From the sequence record MN850601.1: a stretch of DNA of 64,000 nt; one strand, 5' to 3'. Origin of the DNA: Escherichia phage inny. Both the position numbers and the translations under genes were made by a program. The notes beneath the pieces were generated by a model, which saw only the letters and a list, made by a program, of their open reading frames with translations, was not told the DNA's origin and searched no databases. This document shows positions 38,156 to 63,293 of the stretch, in pieces. The stretch's first letter is position 1. Every line of letters begins with the position of its first letter.

Positions 38156-39133
38156 TTAAGCAACAGTCTGGTCTTCTTTTTCAGGGAAGATTAAACTTGC
38201 AATAACACCCAACCCAAGAGTACCTAACACAATATACATACTGATCGTCGGATCAATGTGTGCTGGCAGGAAACTCACTTTTGCGTGCAGAGTTTCTGCA
38301 AACGGATGATACATCAGTTTTACACCCACAAACACCAGGACTACGATAACTGCTTTCTCCAGATGAACCAAATACTTCAGTGCAACACTAAGAACAAAGA
38401 ACAGAGCACGTAAACCTAAGATTGCACAAAGCATCGAAGAGAACACCAGCAGAGGTTCTTGTGTCACTGCAATTACTGCTGGAACAGAGTCTACTGCAAA
38501 GATTACGTCTACCATTTCCATTACAAACACACAAACCAGAGCCGGAGTTGCTACACGAACACCATTTTTGATTGTGAAGAACTTCTCACCATCCATCTGA
38601 TCAGATACAGGGAACAGCTTACGAACAATACGAGTAGCCCAGTGTTTAGAGTAATCAATTTCTGCATCATTATCCCCAGCGAATACCATTTTAGCCGCAC
38701 AGAAAAGGATGACAGCACCGAAGAAGATATTAACATACCAGCCCAAACTCAACAAGTAAGTACCTACTGCTACAAACACACCTCGGAAGACAATTGCACC
38801 TGCAATACCCCAAAGTAGAATCTTGTGCTGCAAGTGTGTGCTTTTAATACCAAAACTTGCGAAGACTGCCACAAATACTACTAAGTTATCTACAGAAAGA
38901 GATTTCTCCAACACATAACCACTCAAGAACAAGCTCGCAAAATCAGCACCGTGTTGGAAGTATACAAAACCATAGTAGGCTAATGATACCCCAATCCAGA
39001 AAATTGACCAACCAATTGCAGATTTAAATGAGATCTCTTTGTTTTCTCTGTGTCCAAAGAAGTCAATACAAATCGACAAGACTAAAATACCCACTAAAAC
39101 AACCACATCAATAATTGGGAAACCCAGTTGCAT
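38156..39133 (-). CDS. terC: TerC-family integral membrane protein
   Basis: 325 aa polytopic; EKSLSVDNLVVFVAVF and later AVDSVPAVIAVT match TerC/Alx signatures. Confidence 0.8.
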   Translation of the reverse strand: MQLGFPIIDVVVLVGILVLSICIDFFGHRENKEISFKSAIGWSIFWIGVSLAYYGFVYFQHGADFASLFLSGYVLEKSLSVDNLVVFVAVFASFGIKSTHLQHKILLWGIAGAIVFRGVFVAVGTYLLSLGWYVNIFFGAVILFCAAKMVFAGDNDAEIDYSKHWATRIVRKLFPVSDQMDGEKFFTIKNGVRVATPALVCVFVMEMVDVIFAVDSVPAVIAVTQEPLLVFSSMLCAILGLRALFFVLSVALKYLVHLEKAVIVVLVFVGVKLMYHPFAETLHAKVSFLPAHIDPTISMYIVLGTLGLGVIASLIFPEKEDQTVA

Positions 39134-39689: not shown

Positions 39690-40406
39690 TTATTTCAGTT
39701 TGTAAACAATTACATTTAAACCTTTGTTCACTAGAGTTTCTTCGATCATAAGTTTTACAATATTCCAAGAACCTCCAGCCAAACCACAACCAAGCATTGG
39801 TAAACCTACAATTTTACCGCCTGAAGATACAACATCGTCTCCCATACTATCTAACGCATTGTAGATAGCTTCATAATTCAGGTCACGCTTACCTTCCTCA
39901 CGACGACTATAACCATATTGTCCATATAAATTATAAATTGTCAAATTGTTTTCTGTATATTTGGTAAACGTACCTAATTTTTTATAATCACCACGTTTAG
40001 TGGCACAATCTGCTTTAAACGCACCAGGCCACTTGCTTTTAATTTTTGGTGCAATACCACTACCCATAGTGCAAAAACAGTTACAGCAGTGTGCTATAGC
40101 GTCTATATCGCCTCTCTCGGCTGCTGCTAAAAGATCACCGTATACCTCAATGATACCTGCCGGATAACTTGTTACAATTTCATCTTCCCAATACATTTTC
40201 TCTACACCACCGATCAGTGCAAAGTTTTGTGTAATGCGATCATCAATATAGTTAAGACCTGAAACATACACAGCGTATTCATCCTGTGCTGTAATACCTT
40301 GCACACGAATTCTTAAGACACCATCTTTATCTGTTGCTACACGCCCAAAATCTTTTTCTGTAATATTGGTGATAGGATCTCCGAAAGTCATTACTTTATT
40401 AGACAT
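39690..40406 (-). CDS. macro-domain protein (ADP-ribose binding/processing), start at internal ATG overlapping upstream stop
   Basis: GDLLAAAERGDIDAIAHCCNCFCTMGSGIA parallels GDIT..DAIVNAAN..GGGV; later GLPMLGCGLAGGSW; ATGTCTAA start/stop overlap with PRTase gene. Confidence 0.6.
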   Translation of the reverse strand: MSNKVMTFGDPITNITEKDFGRVATDKDGVLRIRVQGITAQDEYAVYVSGLNYIDDRITQNFALIGGVEKMYWEDEIVTSYPAGIIEVYGDLLAAAERGDIDAIAHCCNCFCTMGSGIAPKIKSKWPGAFKADCATKRGDYKKLGTFTKYTENNLTIYNLYGQYGYSRREEGKRDLNYEAIYNALDSMGDDVVSSGGKIVGLPMLGCGLAGGSWNIVKLMIEETLVNKGLNVIVYKLK

Positions 40407-41256
40407 AATAATCCCCTTTAACATTAGGTTTGTTGATAATGTTGCTTTCAAAAAATTGACGTAGGAAATCAAAGTTCTCTTTGTATTTTTCAATGTTATT
40501 GTAACCTTCTGCAAGGCAACCAAAGAACAGTTGTTCTACATAATACAAAGGAAGTTGTGAAAGTGCAATTTTAAAATCAACTTCGCTTTGACTCATTAGA
40601 TACTTAATAGGACGAACCAAACATTTAGCATCAGCTTCTTGCTTAATCATTTTAATAAAAGCTGCCAGATTATTGATATAGTTGAAGTTAAGTGCAGCTT
40701 CGGTGTTGGCTTCTGTACCTTCATACTTTGCAAAGTACAGGAAAAACGTATCGTTTTCAACACCTTCTTTGTCTAAAATTTCAATAAGTTTTTCTTCGTG
40801 TGTTCCTGTAATATTAACATCATCAATGAAAATCAGAGTTTTATTACCCCAGAAATCACGATTGATAGAGAAAGTGTCACCATCGATCAAAGCCTTACGA
40901 TCTTCTTTGCTAAGAAATCCATAATCATTGATATAGCTCACTTTACGATGAACGATATCCCACTCCACTGGTTTACCACCTTTGATAGAGATTAGGTAGT
41001 TGAGGTGATCTACAAAATGTTCAGATAACACTGTAGCTGCATTTTTCACATAGTTATATGGAGATGGAATAACAACAAAACTTTCATTTACCAGTCGTTC
41101 TTCATACTTAGAAAAGAAACTTTCAGCCAGAATGCGCCCCATTCTTTTTGCTGCCTGGTTACTACCAAACTTTAGTTTGGAATAATCTGCAATGTTAAAT
41201 TTTGCTTCCTTCAGGTTAGTAAAAGTATTAGCAAAATGTTGAATTTGATTACGCAT
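40399..41256 (-). CDS. type I phosphoribosyltransferase-fold protein
   Basis: 285 aa; KTLIFIDDVNITGTHEE matches the PRPP-binding motif hhhhDDhhTTGxT; 8-nt overlaps with both neighbours. Confidence 0.65.
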   Translation of the reverse strand: MRNQIQHFANTFTNLKEAKFNIADYSKLKFGSNQAAKRMGRILAESFFSKYEERLVNESFVVIPSPYNYVKNAATVLSEHFVDHLNYLISIKGGKPVEWDIVHRKVSYINDYGFLSKEDRKALIDGDTFSINRDFWGNKTLIFIDDVNITGTHEEKLIEILDKEGVENDTFFLYFAKYEGTEANTEAALNFNYINNLAAFIKMIKQEADAKCLVRPIKYLMSQSEVDFKIALSQLPLYYVEQLFFGCLAEGYNNIEKYKENFDFLRQFFESNIINKPNVKGDYYV

Positions 41257-41905
41257 TAATAAGTTCCTCTTTTTTAAGTTTAGCCAACAAGTCTTCTGGA
41301 TTAATAATATGACAGAACTTCATCCCTATGTCAACAGCTTTTCCATCATAAATCAAACTATCTCCAACGTGTAAAATCTCTTCTGGTGCGAGATCAAACG
41401 TCACCATTTCATCAAAAGAGAGTTTAAAAAACCTAGGATCTGGTTTACACAAGCAAAACTCGTCAGAAAAATGCATAAAGTCAAATGGTAATTTTGTTAA
41501 GCCAGAATATACAGCTAAGAAACTACCTGGTACAAAATTAGTATTGCTCTTAATACTCAAAGAGTAGGTTGAACTTAGCTCTTCCAACTTCTTGCAAAGT
41601 TCAGGATTCAATGTTGGAGGATGTTTTATAAACATTGCCAAACAATCTCTTTTTAACCCATCCACTTTATCAAGATCAATGTTCAAACGAGTAGAAAGTG
41701 TTACCCAAGCATCCTTAGACGTTCCACAAATGCCTTTTTCTGCTTTTAAATCCAAGAAAGTTTTTACCTCTTTGTATACGGTAGCTGCTTCTGCCTCAGA
41801 GCAAGAGGCATACTCGGCAATAACCTTGTTGCGCTCTTCTGCATACAAAGGGTTAGCAGTAATAAGAGTATTCCATACATCAAAAGAAATATGCTTAACA
41901 GTCAT
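41249..41905 (-). CDS. HAD-superfamily hydrolase-like protein (non-canonical motif I), start at ATG with GGAGG RBS
   Basis: N-terminal KHISFDVWNTLI in motif I position (second Asp replaced); C-terminal HVGDSLIYDGKA fits GDxxxD motif IV. Confidence 0.5.
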   Translation of the reverse strand: MTVKHISFDVWNTLITANPLYAEERNKVIAEYASCSEAEAATVYKEVKTFLDLKAEKGICGTSKDAWVTLSTRLNIDLDKVDGLKRDCLAMFIKHPPTLNPELCKKLEELSSTYSLSIKSNTNFVPGSFLAVYSGLTKLPFDFMHFSDEFCLCKPDPRFFKLSFDEMVTFDLAPEEILHVGDSLIYDGKAVDIGMKFCHIINPEDLLAKLKKEELINA

Positions 41906-41907
41906 TT

Positions 41908-42063
41908 TTAATCCTCCGTCCAAAAGAATATCATCTGCTTAATTTTATTGATTTCTTGATGTAGTAACTTTCCAGCATGTGATTGATCTTTAATATTGAC
42001 AGCAAGAATTTCAAGTTCCGTTAGTTTTTCTTGGATAGCTTTATATTCATCATCTGTAAGCAT
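41908..42063 (-). CDS. small hypothetical protein (not in ORF track, below 60 aa)
   Basis: 51-codon ORF with AAAGGGGAAG RBS ending 2 nt before HAD start. Confidence 0.25.
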   Translation of the reverse strand: MLTDDEYKAIQEKLTELEILAVNIKDQSHAGKLLHQEINKIKQMIFFWTED

Positions 42064-42312: not shown

Positions 42313-43473
42313 TTAGTAAGAACGACCACCAAACACATACTCTGTGTAGTTTTTACGTTCTTTGTTTTTAATAACAACTTCAATGTTGTTGCCTTTATCA
42401 TCGGTGAACACAAAGTGATAACCGTCACCACCCATTGTACGGATGTGTTTTTCATCATACGTCAGCAAGATACGGTCTACACCCCAGTAGTAGTCACCTT
42501 CTTCATCTTTGTCTTCTACTGTAACGACCCCTTCCATTTCAGGAAGATGCTCCTCTCCTAGCTTATGGTCTACAGCTACAACATAACGATTACCGCTAAA
42601 CAAACCCTGTGCTGTCATACCGTCAATATCGGTATCTGCCGAAACATCTCCTGTACGATCTACACCGTTAACTTTCAGGAGTTTAACTTCTTTTGCAGCA
42701 TAGCGGTGTTCAGTAATACTGATACCCATTAATGCAAGTGCATCAGAGAATTTGTCATTAGGGTAACGGTTAAGTTCTTCTACTAGTGACTGAACAATAT
42801 CAAAGTTCAAGTCCACGGAAAGATTATAAAGCGTTTCAAAATCTGGTAAAAAGGCTTTGTTCTCCAGATTTTTAGCCAGATAGTCATCCATAGTAGCTTT
42901 AGGTAGTTTCTTATAGCTAAAACTGTAGAAAATACGGCTAGGACGATTACGCAAAAATTCTGATACATAACCATCATTTTTAGTCAATACAAACAGCTTG
43001 TCATAGCCACCTACACCATCCAGCAGAGTAAGCAAACCATCCTGTGCATCTTTTTCAGCATACAGTTTATCAAATTCATCGATCATAATCATCACAGGTT
43101 GTGTGATTTTAGACATAAAATTGATAAAGCCTTCGCCATTAAAAGCACTACCGATAGAAATAGTAGGAATACCCATTTCACGAAGAGCAGAAGACAGCAT
43201 TTTAGCTTGCAAAGTTTTACCACTACCCTTCGTACCCTCAAGGAGAACACCTGTGTTTTTACCTTTGCGGCTAAGGAACGTCTTGATAATACGTTCTGAT
43301 TTATCATCAGTATCACCGTATGTTACTGAAGGGACTTCCATATCGTTTTTAGGATACAGGAAGAACTCACCACTTTGAGTAACACCTACACCAAAAGTTC
43401 CTGCTGGAATTTCTTCAATATCTGTACCAGATTTCTGACGCAGGAAGATTTGATTGCCGAATACTGTAAACAT
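42313..43473 (-). CDS. AAA+-type ATPase, paralog A
   Basis: 386 aa; Walker A GTKGSGKT, Walker B VMIMIDEFDK, sensor-like LFVLTKND; colinear with 59019..60146. Confidence 0.6.
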   Translation of the reverse strand: MFTVFGNQIFLRQKSGTDIEEIPAGTFGVGVTQSGEFFLYPKNDMEVPSVTYGDTDDKSERIIKTFLSRKGKNTGVLLEGTKGSGKTLQAKMLSSALREMGIPTISIGSAFNGEGFINFMSKITQPVMIMIDEFDKLYAEKDAQDGLLTLLDGVGGYDKLFVLTKNDGYVSEFLRNRPSRIFYSFSYKKLPKATMDDYLAKNLENKAFLPDFETLYNLSVDLNFDIVQSLVEELNRYPNDKFSDALALMGISITEHRYAAKEVKLLKVNGVDRTGDVSADTDIDGMTAQGLFSGNRYVVAVDHKLGEEHLPEMEGVVTVEDKDEEGDYYWGVDRILLTYDEKHIRTMGGDGYHFVFTDDKGNNIEVVIKNKERKNYTEYVFGGRSY

Positions 43474-59018: not shown

Positions 59019-60146
59019 ATGAAATACACGATTTATGGTGATATTGTAAGTGTAAATAAAGATATGGGCGTGGAATCTAACTATCTTCCACCTGGATTCT
59101 ATACTGTTAGTCGTGATCCCCTTGGCAATTACTTTTTAAGCCGTGGTAATCTAACAGGTGTACCGGATGTTCTGTATGGTGAAACAGAAAAACGAGCAAA
59201 TCACGTTATTCGTACATTCCATCGCCGGAGTGCACAAGGTAAAAACACAGGTTTGCTCCTGACAGGCACTAAGGGCAGTGGTAAAACTATGTTAGCCAAA
59301 CTCATTAGTCGTGACCTTGTAGAAGAAGGTATTCCAACTATTATGGTTACTCAAGCCTACAGCGATGCTAATTTCATTGAACTTATTAGCAAGATCACCG
59401 ACAAAGCAGTGATTATTTTTGACGAGTTTGATAAAGTATATGAGAAGAAACAAGATCAAGAAGCACTTCTCACTTTGTTAGATGGTACTGGCAGTGGTAA
59501 TAAACTGTTTATTCTAACTAAAAACAGTGGCTTTATCTCTGAATTCTTTCTAAATCGTCCTAGTCGTGTGTTTTATAATTTTAATTATGATAAAATCTCA
59601 CTAGAAACTATGATTGACTATTTAGATAAAAACCTGGATAACAAAGCACACTTTGATAATTTCCAAAGGCTTTGGGATGTAAGTTTAGAGTTGTCCTTTG
59701 ATGTGATCCAAGGTATAGTAGAAGAACTTAATTTCTACCCTGATTTATCCTTTAAAGAATGCATCTCTATGATGGGCGTTTCTTTGGGTGGTGGTAATAA
59801 GTGGGATATCAGCAGCGTTGTTATTAATGGGAAACTTCAGAAAGTTAGCTGGGTATCTAGTTGGCATAACTTCACACCTGCAATCTTTTTAGGTGGCTCG
59901 TGCACACTAGACGTGTACTTGTCATCTCCAAGTGATGCAGACTCTAAAGAAGCCCTTGCTAATAGCTCTTACGTGGTTTTTGATGATGAAGGAGATGCTC
60001 GAATTCCATTGAATGCGACAAAAATGAAAGCAGATCTTATTACAGGCGGTAAAATCGTTGTGTTTAGTGATGATCCAGAAGATTCTTTCCGTATTGTTCT
60101 GGAACCAACTATCACCAATGGTGCAACTTTGGCAAGCGTGTTTTAA
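59019..60146 (+). CDS. AAA+-type ATPase, paralog B
   Basis: 375 aa; Walker A GTKGSGKT, Walker B VIIFDEFDK, LFILTKNS; colinear with 42313..43473 over the first ~250 residues. Confidence 0.6.
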   Translation: MKYTIYGDIVSVNKDMGVESNYLPPGFYTVSRDPLGNYFLSRGNLTGVPDVLYGETEKRANHVIRTFHRRSAQGKNTGLLLTGTKGSGKTMLAKLISRDLVEEGIPTIMVTQAYSDANFIELISKITDKAVIIFDEFDKVYEKKQDQEALLTLLDGTGSGNKLFILTKNSGFISEFFLNRPSRVFYNFNYDKISLETMIDYLDKNLDNKAHFDNFQRLWDVSLELSFDVIQGIVEELNFYPDLSFKECISMMGVSLGGGNKWDISSVVINGKLQKVSWVSSWHNFTPAIFLGGSCTLDVYLSSPSDADSKEALANSSYVVFDDEGDARIPLNATKMKADLITGGKIVVFSDDPEDSFRIVLEPTITNGATLASVF

Positions 60147-60163
60147 GTAAGCCAGCAAATAAA

Positions 60164-60186
60164 AACCCGCTCCGGCGGGTTTTCTT
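60164..60186 (+). terminator. rho-independent terminator
   Basis: AAAAACCCGC-TCC-GGCGGGTTTTCTTGTAT. Confidence 0.6.
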
Positions 60187-60220
60187 GTATTGATGCCAGA
60201 TTTAATAAGAGGAGTAATAG

Positions 60221-61393
60221 ATGACAGCACCAAAATCATGGGAACAATATAAAGAAGAATTAACACCCCTTGCTAAAAATCGCAATATTCAAATCCGGGG
60301 TTATGTTGGTGAATGGAAAGGGAACAAGACTAAACTTAAGCTATCTTGCCCTAAACATGGAGAGTGGAACACCACGAACATTAATGATTTTAAGAAGGGA
60401 CGTGGTTGTCCTATCTGTTCTGGTAAGAAGCCGTTAACATGGGAAACAGAATTGCCGATCTTGGAAGAGATAGCACAGAAGAGGGGGTATCAGGTGTTAG
60501 GGTACGTGGGAGAATGGAAAGGGAATAAAACAAAACTTGATTTGTTGTGTCATTGTGGTAATAAATGGGATACTACAAGTATTAACAATTTTAAACGTGG
60601 TAGCGGTTGTCCACAATGTAAGAGGGAGAGACAAACAATGTCCGACGATCAACATATTGCAGATTTCTTTTCTACAGGGGAATTTAAGGAAGGCACTATC
60701 TTCACCAATACAGGGAAACGTAACAAGCGTGATGCAGTATGGATGGTTGAGTGTCCTGTTTGCTCCCATGATGAATATGTTCAAGCAGGTGTTTGTGATG
60801 GTAAATTTTACTCTGCAGGACATAACCTTAAACAAGGGTATATTCCGTGTCGTTGTGGGAACTATCAGTATACAGAAGACCAGATCACCTATAGGGTAAA
60901 AAAGGAAGTAGAAGGGAAAGGGTATGTCTGGGTAGATTGGATTACCAAACCCTCTTCTATAGGTAAGTTTAAATATCTTTGTCTTGTGCATGGTGAGCAG
61001 ATAGGGAGTGCTCGTAATTTATTAAGCCTCGGTCAAGGTTGTCCACAGTGTGCTGGTCATAATCAACAGCAATTATATATTAATATTGTTAAAGATAATG
61101 ATATTATAGTTGCTCTTAAGTTTGGTATATCTAAAGATAGCGATAGACGATTAAACGGTCAAAATAGCCGTAATCTGTTTTTTATGGAGCGTATTTGTTT
61201 ATATGATTTTAGCACAGTGAAACAATGTAGGGCTGCTGAAAGAGCTATAAAGAAAAAATTAAAAACTGGTATTTTAACGGCAAGAGAGTTGAAAGATGGT
61301 TATACAGAAACAGTAAGTGTTTCTGATTTGGAAAATCTTCAAAAAATTATTACACAATATGGTGGCAAATTAGTATACAGTAAGGAGATGTAA
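60221..61393 (+). CDS. zinc-ribbon repeat protein with C-terminal T5orf172/GIY-YIG-like region (tentative)
   Basis: Repeated module Y(V/L)GEWKGNKTKL..C..HG.W.TT.IN.FK.G.GCP.C three times (CPIC, CPQC, CPQC); C-terminus IVALKFGISKDSDRRL. Confidence 0.5.
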   Translation: MTAPKSWEQYKEELTPLAKNRNIQIRGYVGEWKGNKTKLKLSCPKHGEWNTTNINDFKKGRGCPICSGKKPLTWETELPILEEIAQKRGYQVLGYVGEWKGNKTKLDLLCHCGNKWDTTSINNFKRGSGCPQCKRERQTMSDDQHIADFFSTGEFKEGTIFTNTGKRNKRDAVWMVECPVCSHDEYVQAGVCDGKFYSAGHNLKQGYIPCRCGNYQYTEDQITYRVKKEVEGKGYVWVDWITKPSSIGKFKYLCLVHGEQIGSARNLLSLGQGCPQCAGHNQQQLYINIVKDNDIIVALKFGISKDSDRRLNGQNSRNLFFMERICLYDFSTVKQCRAAERAIKKKLKTGILTARELKDGYTETVSVSDLENLQKIITQYGGKLVYSKEM

Positions 61394-61945
61394 ATGCGGA
61401 TTACTGATAAGTATGTGTTCTTCTTCTCGGCAAAAGATGAATTTAGCAACTGGTATCTATCATCTTTTATTGAACCTTTAGCTCCCAAGTATAATAATTC
61501 TATTACAAGTTCTGTTGAATTTACTTGTGTGGAACAATATATGATGTGGAGAAAAGCATGTTTGTTTTATGATTACAACATTGCATCTTCTATTTTAACC
61601 GGAGATCTAAGATATACAGGAGAAAAAGAACAGGCATATTATAAGCGACTAGGTAGATTAGTTAAAGATTACGATGAAGCTACTTGGACTTCTTTACGGG
61701 AGAAGATTGTCAAGCGTGGTTTGTATCTTAAATACACACAAAATGAAGATCTCAAAAATAAACTTATCGCTTACGCAGATAAGGAGTTCGTAGAGGCAAG
61801 CCCTTATGATTCTATTTATGGTATCAAAATGGGAATGTGGGATCGTGATGTGGAAAATAAGGACTGTTGGAAAGGACAAAATCTTTTAGGAAAATGGCAT
61901 ACAGACCTTGCTGTTTATCTAAAAGCACAATCTGATATTTCCTGA
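61394..61945 (+). CDS. NADAR-domain protein (YbiA/DUF1768-like)
   Basis: 183 aa; FFFSAKDEFSNWY, EQYMMWRKA, LVKDYDEATW, EFVEASPYDSIYGIKMG and GQNLLGK are colinear with E. coli YbiA; TAAATG coupling. Confidence 0.8.
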   Translation: MRITDKYVFFFSAKDEFSNWYLSSFIEPLAPKYNNSITSSVEFTCVEQYMMWRKACLFYDYNIASSILTGDLRYTGEKEQAYYKRLGRLVKDYDEATWTSLREKIVKRGLYLKYTQNEDLKNKLIAYADKEFVEASPYDSIYGIKMGMWDRDVENKDCWKGQNLLGKWHTDLAVYLKAQSDIS

Positions 61946-62160
61946 TATTTTGAAAATTTTTATTTTTATAAAAAGGGGTGTGGGTTTCATGTACGGAAAT
62001 CCACCCTCTGAATAATATATCCAGAGTAAATATTATTCTGTACTCTGTTAATAAAGTATTTAATTTGTTTGTTTGACTATGGTATCTGATCTTTAAAAGA
62101 CATACTATCTCTTAACTACTACTTATAACAGAACAGTAAAATCATTTTTATAAAAAGTAC

Positions 62161-62365
62161 AAAATTATTTAAAGTTTTTACAGATTTTTGGGTACAAATT
62201 TTGAAAATGAAAAGTTCAAGTTTGGTCAAAATTATTTAAAGTTTTTGTACGTATTTCTGTCCAGATTTTGAAAATGAAAACTTCAATTTTTTAAAAATTC
62301 CCCAGTTTATTTAAAGTTTTTTTGCCTTTTTCCGTAGAAAAATCAAAAATGAAAAGTTCAATTTC
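62161..62365. repeat. three imperfect tandem direct repeats (~67-78 bp period)
   Basis: Each unit holds ATTATTTAAAGTTTTT and GAAAATGAAAAGTTCAA cores (units at about 62161, 62228, 62306); AT-rich, no ORF. Confidence 0.6.
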
Positions 62366-62385
62366 GTGTTTTTATAGGTGTGTTA

Positions 62386-62497
62386 ATGAGAATCATTTTC
62401 GTTTGTAAATGAGAATCATTATCATTTAACTATGTAAGTGATAATCATTCTCAGTAAGAGAATGAGAATCATTAGCAAATGAGAATTTTCTCATTTA
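62386..62497. promoter_or_regulatory. array of Fur-box-like palindromes (candidate iron-responsive operator cluster)
   Basis: AATGAGAATCATT at 62386, 62409 and 62462, GATAATCATTCTC at 62441 and AATGAGAA-TT-TTCTCATT at 62480; 62409..62425 matches the Fur box core at 15 of 16 positions. Confidence 0.5.
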
Positions 62498-62731
62498 GAG
62501 AATAACGCGCAGGGGCGGTGTTTGTCTCGCGCTCCCGTGTCCCCTCGCCATACAATAAGAATAGCATAACCAACAACAAAAGCAAGCGATTATTTTTATC
62601 TTTACATTTCTTTACAAATTTATTTTAGACGAGCTACCGGCGATCAACCTTCCAACCAGTGCCCCCTGGTATGTTAGCCCCGCCTTTACGCCGTGGGGGT
62701 GGCGTTTCCTCTTCTGTATGTAAAACAGTAT

Positions 62732-62750
62732 AAGCCCGATCCCTGGGCTT
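62732..62750. terminator. bidirectional hairpin terminator
   Basis: AAGCCC-GATCCCT-GGGCTT; T-rich on plus side (ATTATTTTTTGTTTT) and directly downstream of minus-strand ORF 62758..63024. Confidence 0.45.
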
Positions 62751-62757
62751 GTCAAGA

Positions 62758-63024
62758 TTATTTTTTGTTTTCTTGCCAGGATAGGACACCTAACCAAAAA
62801 TACATGTCGCCCCGCGCCCCTGGCGGGATCTTGCTTTCCCCGCCGCCACTACAAGCCCATAGATAACCATTAGCGAACGGATCAAAATGATCTATTTCTT
62901 CCACCTTATGATCGCCCAGGTTGAGAACGGTTTCAACCTTTAAGCCCGTTGCGCTTGCTACCTGGTGCACCGTGCCGCCTTGCCAGCCTAATGAGTGCAT
63001 GAGGTGTAGAGTAGTATTTGTCAT
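62758..63024 (-). CDS. hypothetical protein in GC-richer segment
   Basis: 88 aa; AAGG-type RBS; codon usage visibly GC-richer than the phage core. Confidence 0.4.
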   Translation of the reverse strand: MTNTTLHLMHSLGWQGGTVHQVASATGLKVETVLNLGDHKVEEIDHFDPFANGYLWACSGGGESKIPPGARGDMYFWLGVLSWQENKK

Positions 63025-63137
63025 GGTATCGCCCTTTCTTTGATGTGCGCCCTGGTTGGCGCGGTAGAAAGATAATAGCCCTTTCCTTTATAGATAGCAA
63101 GCAAAAAAAAGAAATGAAAAAAAGATTAAAAAAGGGG

Positions 63138-63166
63138 TTGACGTTCCTCACCTGGTAGCGTATTAT
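63138..63166 (+). promoter_or_regulatory. candidate sigma70 promoter
   Basis: TTGACG, 17-nt spacer, TATTAT, preceded by A-rich tract. Confidence 0.4.
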
Positions 63167-63293
63167 TCATCTTGTCGAGGGGGGCGAGGCACAACGACAA
63201 TAAACAAAAGGAGGGCGCAATGTAGGACGGGCAAAGGTGAGGATCTCCATAATCCACCGTCACAATAACATTACTTATAAAAGGTTGATAACG

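Follow-up and report, generated by a model that had tools for sequence, protein, structure and literature searches.

What does a phi92-like phage gain from a gene for a NADAR protein, and does the protein act on ADP-ribosylated DNA, on some other ADP-ribose (ADPr) conjugate or in an unrelated housekeeping reaction? The question arises from an open reading frame in a 64,000-nt stretch of phage DNA (the window). A preliminary description, made from the sequence, took this reading frame to encode a 183-aa NADAR protein colinear with E. coli YbiA. It pointed to a macro domain encoded elsewhere in the window and suggested that the phage, with two ADP-ribose-processing domains, deals with ADP-ribosylation, most plausibly as anti-defence.

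The NADAR gene, its family and its fold

The 183-aa reading frame is present on the + strand exactly where it had been described. Its ATG start codon directly abuts the TAA stop codon (61391-61393) of the preceding gene and follows a ribosome-binding site:

61394..61945, + strand: NADAR gene, 183 aa, orthologue of adfN^Bas60 (open reading frame, Pfam, orthology, AlphaFold2, Foldseek)
61382..61387, + strand: ribosome-binding site AAGGAG, 6 nt 5' of the NADAR ATG (direct sequence reading)

Profile searches agree on the family. Pfam NADAR (PF08719) scores 126 bits (cut-off 35.1; E = 2.3e-36), with residues 13-168 matching profile positions 9-154 of 163, and NCBIfam TIGR02464 scores 109.8 bits (cut-off 73.7). 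The NADAR identity that had been proposed is confirmed by these two models, both of which exceed their curated cut-offs; PHROG 1017 is matched as well (E = 4e-50). The AlphaFold2 model has a mean pLDDT of 96.6 and a pTM of 0.91, and both the model and its Foldseek comparison reveal the YbiA-like alpha-helical core with small flanking beta-sheets. In the Foldseek search, the only significant matches in the PDB were 8BAU (E = 1e-9, TM 0.77) and 2B3W (E = 5e-6, TM 0.69-0.75). The former is the crystal structure of the Phytophthora nicotianae NADAR (PnNADAR) with bound ADP-ribose (PMC11543638). The latter is the NMR structure of E. coli YbiA. Colinearity with YbiA also holds: the two proteins share sequence blocks at 25% identity (alignment A1), and Foldseek gives TM values of 0.69/0.75 to 2B3W.

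Pairs of relatives differ in this gene by 11-17 synonymous versus 1-3 non-synonymous codon changes. The gene encodes an intact enzyme and is under purifying selection. Several GenBank records name the protein 'YbiA-like N-glycosidase' or 'GTP cyclohydrolase II'.

The window protein is the orthologue of AdfN^Bas60

Megablast of positions 60000-63000 of the window returned Escherichia phage Paula at 99.4% identity and dozens of Justusliebigvirus genomes at 93-99% identity, including the BASEL phages Bas60 (PaulScherrer) and Bas62 (JohannJBalmer). The window belongs to Justusliebigvirus and stems from a phi92-like E. coli myovirus of the subfamily Stephanstirmvirinae. The matched Justusliebigvirus genomes, all from phi92-like myoviruses, measure ~146 kb. 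In the GenBank record of Bas62, the NADAR gene is bas62_0106, a 'putative YbiA-like N-glycosidase', and the macro gene is bas62_0068, a 'putative macrodomain protein'.

The window NADAR is identical to the product of bas60_0111 at 180 of 183 positions (98%) and to that of bas62_0106 at 182 of 183 (99%). Gene order is conserved with both phages, and so is protein length. The substitutions relative to the Bas60 allele are N62S, A96D and A178T, none of which falls on an active-site position.

The Bas60 allele is the one for which experimental data exist. In a search for NADARs among the phages of the BASEL collection, Johannesman et al. (Nat Commun 2025, PMC11825919) found them in Bas60, Bas61 and Bas62 and gave the Bas60 protein the name AdfN^Bas60, for anti-DarT factor NADAR. 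Expressed from a plasmid, AdfN^Bas60 neutralised the DarT1 toxin in uninfected E. coli and restored plaquing on DarTG1 for three unrelated sensitive phages, namely RB69, T5 and Bas25 (PMC11825919). T5 was not rescued on DarTG2, whose target is thymidine, and AdfN^Bas60 is thus specific for the guanine-type modification (PMC11825919).

With orthology supported by both identity and synteny, the window NADAR is effectively the same protein as AdfN^Bas60. Because that protein is 98% identical and its action on DarT1 and DarTG1 has been demonstrated experimentally, the anti-defence reading of the preliminary description is well founded, and it had already been published. The finding is known both from annotation and from experiment; the gene adds a phi92-like phage to the carriers of a validated counter-defence, and leaves little to discover in this respect. 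Collections assembled with therapy in mind make use of phages of this genus, for which the presence of an anti-DarTG1 enzyme helps to predict host range.

A complete ADP-ribose-binding and catalytic site

We mapped the active site by HMMER alignment to 8BAU and by alignment A1, taking residue roles from the PnNADAR-ADPr crystal structure and from mutagenesis of the E. coli C7 NADAR (PMC11543638). All residues for guanine de-ADP-ribosylation are present in the phage protein: E47, K54, K84, R88, W98, R102, E134 and D139. Their counterparts in PnNADAR (Pn), the C7 protein (C7) and the T4 protein (T4), together with that of the adenine-stacking Y93, are as follows:

E47: Pn E43, C7 E88, T4 E36; distal ribose
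K54: Pn K50, C7 K95, T4 K43; diphosphate, essential
K84: Pn K75, C7 K115; this Lys is required for toxicity rescue in vivo
R88, W98, R102 and D139: Pn R79, W89, R93 and D130; diphosphate network
Y93: Pn Y84; stacks on adenine
E134: Pn E125, C7 D171, His in T4-type NADARs; second acidic residue

The ADPr contacts seen in 8BAU are kept one for one in the phage NADAR, with the conservative change of W133 to Y142 as the sole exception. When the protein is aligned with 120 homologues from the database, K54 proves invariant, and conservation is at least 90% for each of E47, K84, R88, W98, E134 and D139. Loss of catalytic residues, which the preliminary description had named as the point to check, is not what we find: E47, K54 and E134 are retained along with the ADPr-binding residues.

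This bears on the idea that the protein is no catalyst but inhibits another defence by binding ADPr or a protein. There is a precedent in the phage NADAR of the Retron-Eco1 study, which, in the contrast with AdfN drawn by Johannesman et al. (PMC11825919), acts without a need for enzymatic activity. An active site that is complete and strongly conserved argues for catalysis, however, and we consider a purely binding role for the window protein very improbable.

Comparison with known NADAR types

The position of the protein among NADARs was assessed from signature residues, best hits and the published tree, in which AdfN^Bas60 groups with bacterial NADARs that are neither of the YbiA nor of the DarG1 kind (PMC11825919). 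A phmmer search of the PDB retrieved PnNADAR at 2.5e-12 and did not find YbiA at E<=0.01. Similarly, the PADLOC model for stand-alone NADARs, PDC-M42C, gives 117 bits for the window protein versus 56 for YbiA. PnNADAR, at 28% identity, and YbiA, at 22%, are the closest proteins with solved structures (8BAU and 2B3W). Compared with both, the window NADAR has 12-13 inserted residues (~28-40), and its loop at 145-160 is longer. PnNADAR and YbiA are cellular proteins, unlike the phage-encoded counter-defence.

The DarG1 antitoxins of E. coli C7 and G. lovleyi share fold and chemistry with the window NADAR, which has the equivalents of E88, K95 and K115. They differ from it in having an adjacent DarT1, an N-terminal beta1-beta2-alpha1 extension and the catalytic Asp171, all of which are absent here. 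We rejected a DarG1-type antitoxin on these grounds: the window gene has no DarT neighbour, the core fold of its product begins at residue ~7 with no N-terminal extension, and Glu134 stands in place of the Asp. The DarG1 models in NCBIfam and PADLOC gave no match to the window NADAR.

AdfN^T4 (T4 gp30.3) is likewise an orphan phage NADAR, and its Glu/Lys pair, E36/K43, corresponds to E47/K54. It counters DarTG1 through removal of ADPr from guanine and depends on a T-even-specific factor (PMC11825919). Assignment of the window protein to the T4 type was nevertheless rejected, with only 13% identity between the two (alignment A1) and His in the T4 type versus Glu134 here. Function separates the two as well: AdfN^Bas60 rescues cells from DarT1 toxicity alone, whereas AdfN^T4 alone does not. 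The Bas60-type and T4-type AdfN proteins are independent acquisitions.

Glu at the position of residue 134 is a signature of the YbiA family (PMC11543638), and the window protein combines it with a TIGR02464 match, the two features expected of a riboflavin N-glycosidase. Together with the GenBank labels, the 109.8-bit score against a cut-off of 73.7 could be read as the mark of a housekeeping YbiA-like N-glycosidase that destroys reactive intermediates of the riboflavin pathway during infection. Closest kinship to YbiA and a link to riboflavin genes, the further features of such an enzyme, are both missing. PnNADAR is nearer than YbiA by phmmer, and no riboflavin (rib) genes lie near the NADAR gene, either in the window or in the Bas62 annotation. 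YbiA, like T4 gp30.3, is active in vitro yet fails to rescue cells from DarT1 toxicity (PMC11125620), a test in which AdfN^Bas60 succeeds (PMC11825919), and in the published tree AdfN^Bas60 falls among bacterial NADARs outside the YbiA group (PMC11825919). A riboflavin-related role is hence very hard to sustain. The labels 'YbiA-like N-glycosidase' and 'GTP cyclohydrolase II', as well as the riboflavin name of the NCBIfam model, fit this protein poorly, and an AdfN-type annotation would be preferable.

Proposed mechanism and substrate range

We propose, with a probability of roughly 0.85, that the NADAR gene encodes an orphan ADP-ribosylglycohydrolase, the orthologue of AdfN^Bas60, which undoes the guanine ADP-ribosylation of phage DNA by DarT1. 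Upon infection of a host with DarTG1, DarT1 would place ADP-ribose on guanine in single-stranded phage DNA and so block replication. The NADAR would then bind the ADP-ribose moiety, holding the diphosphate with K54, R88, W98 and R102, stacking Y93 on the adenine and flanking the distal ribose with E47 and E134. Cleavage of the N-glycosidic bond between ribose and guanine would restore unmodified DNA, on which replication could resume. An enzyme of this kind acts catalytically on the lesion and not by binding the toxin, and is therefore expected to be active against any guanine-directed DNA ADP-ribosyltransferase.

For the window protein itself, the analysis shows that it belongs to the family and has its fold and active-site residues, that it is an orthologue of AdfN^Bas60 and that selection constrains it; the residue-level scheme is transferred from the PnNADAR-ADPr structure and the C7 mutagenesis and would apply by analogy. 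In the same way, the window allele probably behaves like the Bas60 allele, and its own phage presumably needs it; the AdfN^Bas60 tests used ectopic expression from plasmids (PMC11825919). All NADAR types tested, including the housekeeping YbiA, remove ADPr from guanine in vitro (PMC11125620), and homology alone is therefore no proof of antitoxin-grade activity. We infer such activity for the window NADAR because of the Bas60 data obtained in vivo.

The removal of guanine-linked ADPr may be part of a wider activity. In an extension of the main explanation, the protein would also erase ADPr from cytidine and from RNA, and thereby act against pierisin/ScARP-like, YarT-like and RNA-targeting systems. 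Members of the stand-alone 'NADAR' family and of the YbiA family strip DNA and RNA of C-ADPr, an activity that the DarG1 and T4 types lack (PMC12945103), and the window protein is stand-alone/YbiA-like by three measures: Glu134, PnNADAR as best PDB match, and the PDC-M42C score of 117 bits with no DarG1 match. This placement, however, draws on a residue signature and best hits. We found no literature assay of a Bas60-type protein on C-ADPr or RNA, nor did we identify an E. coli defence that ADP-ribosylates cytidine. The extension is accordingly a tentative one, and we would sooner expect the activity to be confined to guanine.

A different reading holds that the main substrate of the NADAR is not DNA, but small-molecule derivatives of ADP-ribose, such as immune signals, NAD+ breakdown products or by-products of RNA repair. 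Iyer et al. (2022) proposed such a role, from genomic context, for most phage NADAR and Macro domains. It would suit the wide NAD+/ADPr toolkit of the near-identical phage Bas62, which beyond the region covered by the window encodes a sirtuin, an RNA-repair set and a PRPP-synthetase-like plus NAMPT-like pair. This gene set is consistent with a lineage on which NAD+/ADPr-based immunity exerts broad pressure. Against a small-molecule substrate stands the neutralisation of a DNA-modifying toxin in vivo by the Bas60 allele (PMC11825919). Moreover, no such substrate has been reported for the clade, and the NADAR gene does not lie beside those NAD+ genes. We therefore regard this reading as unlikely, although less so than a riboflavin-related or non-catalytic role.

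Genomic neighbourhood of the NADAR gene

The NADAR gene is the last of a run of + strand genes, in which it is preceded by a CapR/T5orf172 gene and, further upstream, by an AAA ATPase gene:

59019..60146, + strand: AAA ATPase, 375 aa (Pfam AAA, PHROG 2376)
60221..61393, + strand: protein with three CapR stretches and a T5orf172 domain (endonuclease-like), directly upstream of the NADAR gene (Pfam CapR 145 bits over the three stretches, T5orf172 20.7 bits; PHROG 681 'endonuclease')

The CapR/T5orf172 gene varies in length among relatives, reaching for example 1404 nt in Bas60. Profile annotation of the neighbouring genes revealed no ADP-ribosyltransferase or DarT beside the NADAR gene, and its 3' flank is a repeat region free of open reading frames. 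The AAA ATPase is a paralogue of a second ATPase encoded at 42313..43473, upstream of the HAD, PRTase and macro genes described below, with 47% identity over 254 aa. Since each of the two hydrolase clusters contains one of these paralogues, we considered a functional link between NADAR and ATPase; it was rejected as evidence of a general kind, the linkage being confined to Stephanstirmvirinae. In Vequintavirinae, the NADAR homologue (39-45% identity) is found among genes for an HNH endonuclease, an exonuclease, EndoVII and a DNA polymerase, and there is no ATPase. This context suits a DNA-directed role.

Scans for tRNA genes and Rfam families over the whole 64,000-nt window returned no matches. 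The number of promoter-like sites in the window lies within the expectation from shuffled sequence and outlines no clear transcription unit. The terminator scan found no terminator-like hairpin immediately 3' of the NADAR gene; over the window as a whole it found 14, versus 4.6 expected from shuffling.

The macro-domain protein and its cluster

The second ADP-ribose-processing protein named in the preliminary description, a macro domain at 39690..40406, proved equally real: the gene lies on the - strand, its product scores above the Pfam Macro cut-off, and Foldseek recognises a macro fold. It is found in a cluster with the following genes:

38156..39133, - strand: TerC-family membrane protein, three genes downstream of the macro gene (Pfam TerC 132.9 bits)
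39690..40406, - strand: macro-domain protein, 238 aa (Pfam Macro 31.3 bits, cut-off 22; Foldseek, phmmer)
40399..41256, - strand: ComF-like phosphoribosyltransferase, PRTase_3 (Pfam PF15610 143 bits)
41249..41923, - strand: HAD-family hydrolase (Pfam Hydrolase 26.2 bits, marginally under the cut-off of 26.4)

Residues 1-85 of the macro protein form a genus-specific, poorly predicted N-terminal extension, and residues ~86-238 constitute the macro domain; in the predicted model, the C-terminal ~150 residues have a pLDDT >90. The best matches by PDB phmmer were SCO6735 (5E3B; 3e-15), the Bacteroides protein BT1257 and TARG1; DarG was matched weakly. Foldseek ranked TARG1 first (TMt 0.91), ahead of BT1257, Thermus DarG and SCO6735. 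Where TARG1 and DarG have their catalytic Lys (K84 and K80, respectively), the phage protein has Gln163, and an Ala replaces TARG1 D125. Both N109 and Q163 are invariant in 121 homologues. Sequence and predicted fold together assign the protein to the SCO6735 subtype of the TARG1/ALC1-like class.

The comparison with SCO6735 of Streptomyces coelicolor is instructive for function. The two proteins have the TARG1/ALC1-like fold in common, H24/N27 of SCO6735 correspond to H106/N109 of the phage protein, and Gln85 corresponds to Gln163. SCO6735 depends on Gln85 to remove ADPr from thymidine on DNA, and it protects E. coli against DarT2 (PMC9411070). By analogy, it is plausible that the phage macro protein erases the thymidine-ADP-ribose made by DarT2 and so has an anti-DarTG2 role. 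Our literature search retrieved no DarTG2 test of Bas60-62 and none of the Gln-type phage macro clade. If the macro protein does erase thymidine-ADPr, resistance to DarTG2 would be explained and a Gln-type mechanism would join the phage anti-DarT repertoire.

By contrast, the catalytic Lys of DarG (K80), TARG1 (K84) and AdfM (K78) is lacking in the phage macro protein, as is the C-terminal DarT2-binding domain of DarG2. AdfM, described in 2026, is the Lys-type phage macro anti-DarTG2 factor of chimalliviruses (PMC13309987). A macro antitoxin of the DarG2/AdfM type was rejected for the window protein in view of the Gln in place of Lys and of an NCBIfam DarG score of 48.9 bits (cut-off 250), which covers only positions 4-147 of 338; the PADLOC DarG model likewise matched partially, at 49 bits. 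What sets the phage protein apart from SCO6735, DarG2 and AdfM alike is the 85-aa N-terminal extension and the surrounding HAD-PRTase-TerC cluster.

Alternatively, the macro protein may act together with the HAD-PRTase_3 module on a ribosyl or ADPr metabolite. The genes are tightly packed: the PRTase_3 stop overlaps the macro start by 8 nt, and the HAD gene overlaps the PRTase start by another 8 nt. The order HAD-PRTase-macro-TerC, including the position of TerC, is kept in the Phapecoctavirus phiWec179. PRTase/HAD modules are presumably associated with Ter systems, to go by the Pfam family name. Synteny does not prove a functional link between the macro protein and the HAD-PRTase pair, as each occurs without the other in other phages. 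The pair forms a two-gene module that recurs, with no adjacent macro gene, in unrelated phages of Caulobacter and of Rhizobium, in the latter next to an NMNAT/Nudix gene; a macro gene with no PRTase occurs in Vequintavirinae and in Pseudomonas phage PaoP5, where it adjoins NAMPT-like and PRPP-synthetase-like genes. NARP3 was also considered as the identity of the PRTase cluster and rejected, since NARP3 consists of PnuC and NadR and is unrelated.

Co-carriage of NADAR and macro domains

A distance of 21 kb separates the NADAR and macro genes, which belong to different clusters and are read from opposite strands. One could imagine that they protect complementary bases, with the NADAR acting on guanine (possibly also on cytidine and RNA) and the Gln-type macro protein on thymidine, so that DarTG1 and DarTG2 would both be countered. 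We put this forward as a speculative possibility that we would not bet on. Were it true, the Gln-type macro protein would represent a second macro anti-DarT factor, mechanistically distinct from the Lys-type AdfM of chimalliviruses.

As for the two ADP-ribose-processing domains of the preliminary description, both genes stand up to scrutiny and the NADAR has a supported anti-defence role, but the pairing is not special to this phage and is common in large phages. Phages with both domains were already known, and our analysis gave no evidence of cooperation between the two enzymes. In DNA viruses, Macro and NADAR domains co-occur above expectation (Iyer et al. 2022). Macro homologues, T4 Tk.4 among them, are present in ~2,900 phage records and NADAR homologues in 716, and T4 carries one of each kind.

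Surroundings of the NADAR gene

The NADAR gene (61394–61945, +), the counter-defence gene of the window and an orthologue of AdfN^Bas60, is directly abutted by a gene at 60221–61393 (+) whose product combines three zinc-finger-like CapR-homology domains with T5orf172 and carries the PHROG label 'endonuclease'. The length of this gene differs between close relatives, measuring 390 aa in the window, 1404 nt in Bas60 and 1398 nt in phage alia. In Vequintavirinae, NADAR is followed by an HNH endonuclease instead. The CapR/T5orf172 gene may be a homing-endonuclease-like mobile gene that sits beside a counter-defence gene.

Immediately 3' of the NADAR gene lies a stretch without ORFs (61950–62500) that has a GC content of 23% and contains two sets of repeats:

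62144–62364, three direct repeats of ~70–79 nt each, with 72% identity
62388–62486, three 29-nt repeats ('GAGAATCATT...')

At the homologous place, repeat regions are annotated in phage alia. The stretch looks iteron-like and could represent an origin or a regulatory region.

A GC island spans 62450–63200, where the GC content reaches 45–49% compared to about 35–40% in the surroundings. tRNA and Rfam scans of this island yielded no match. Its features are:

62680–62830, both strands, GC-rich terminator-like hairpins
62758–63024, –, 88-aa ORF, hypothetical in Bas62

Two paralogous AAA ATPases are encoded in the window, one within the NADAR cluster (59019–60146, +) and the other within the HAD-PRTase-macro cluster (42313–43473, –). 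Their first 254 residues are 47% identical, and their C-termini are unrelated. Public records label these proteins as 'FtsH-like protease' or 'putative ATPase or Zn metalloprotease'.

The HAD-PRTase module and the macro protein

The genes for the HAD hydrolase and the ComF-like phosphoribosyltransferase (PRTase_3) have overlapping reading frames and form a two-gene module (40399–41923, –). This module is kept in 156 phage records from unrelated lineages, its carriers including Stephanstirmvirinae as well as phages of Rhizobium, Caulobacter, Brevundimonas and Xanthomonas. Its neighbours are an NMNAT/Nudix gene in the Rhizobium phages and the macro and TerC genes in the window. The module may constitute an uncharacterised phage pathway related to nucleotides or NAD.

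The macro protein (39690–40406, –) has an N-terminal extension of ~85 aa (residues 1–85), for which a β-hairpin is predicted with low confidence. This extension is missing from nearly all macro homologues, stand-alone proteins about 150 aa long, and is seemingly common to just one further database protein (P0002, 230 aa).

Related phage records

The PRTases of two records, MG065639.1 and MG065650.1 ('Campylobacter phage A150/B15'), are 98.9% and 64.6% identical to that of the window at the amino-acid level. Their genomes measure ~146–151 kb, which is typical for Justusliebigvirus and Phapecoctavirus of E. coli. Five 'Campylobacter' records also match the DNA of the NADAR region. The host label of these records looks doubtful.

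The 98–99%-identical relative Bas62 (MZ501084.1) encodes further NAD+/ADPr-related genes in a part of its genome that falls outside the window. These comprise a sirtuin-family protein, a set of polynucleotide kinase, RNA ligase and phosphoesterase, and a neighbouring pair of PRPP-synthetase-like and nicotinamide-PRTase-like genes that is, by annotation only, reminiscent of phage NAD+ reconstitution pathways.
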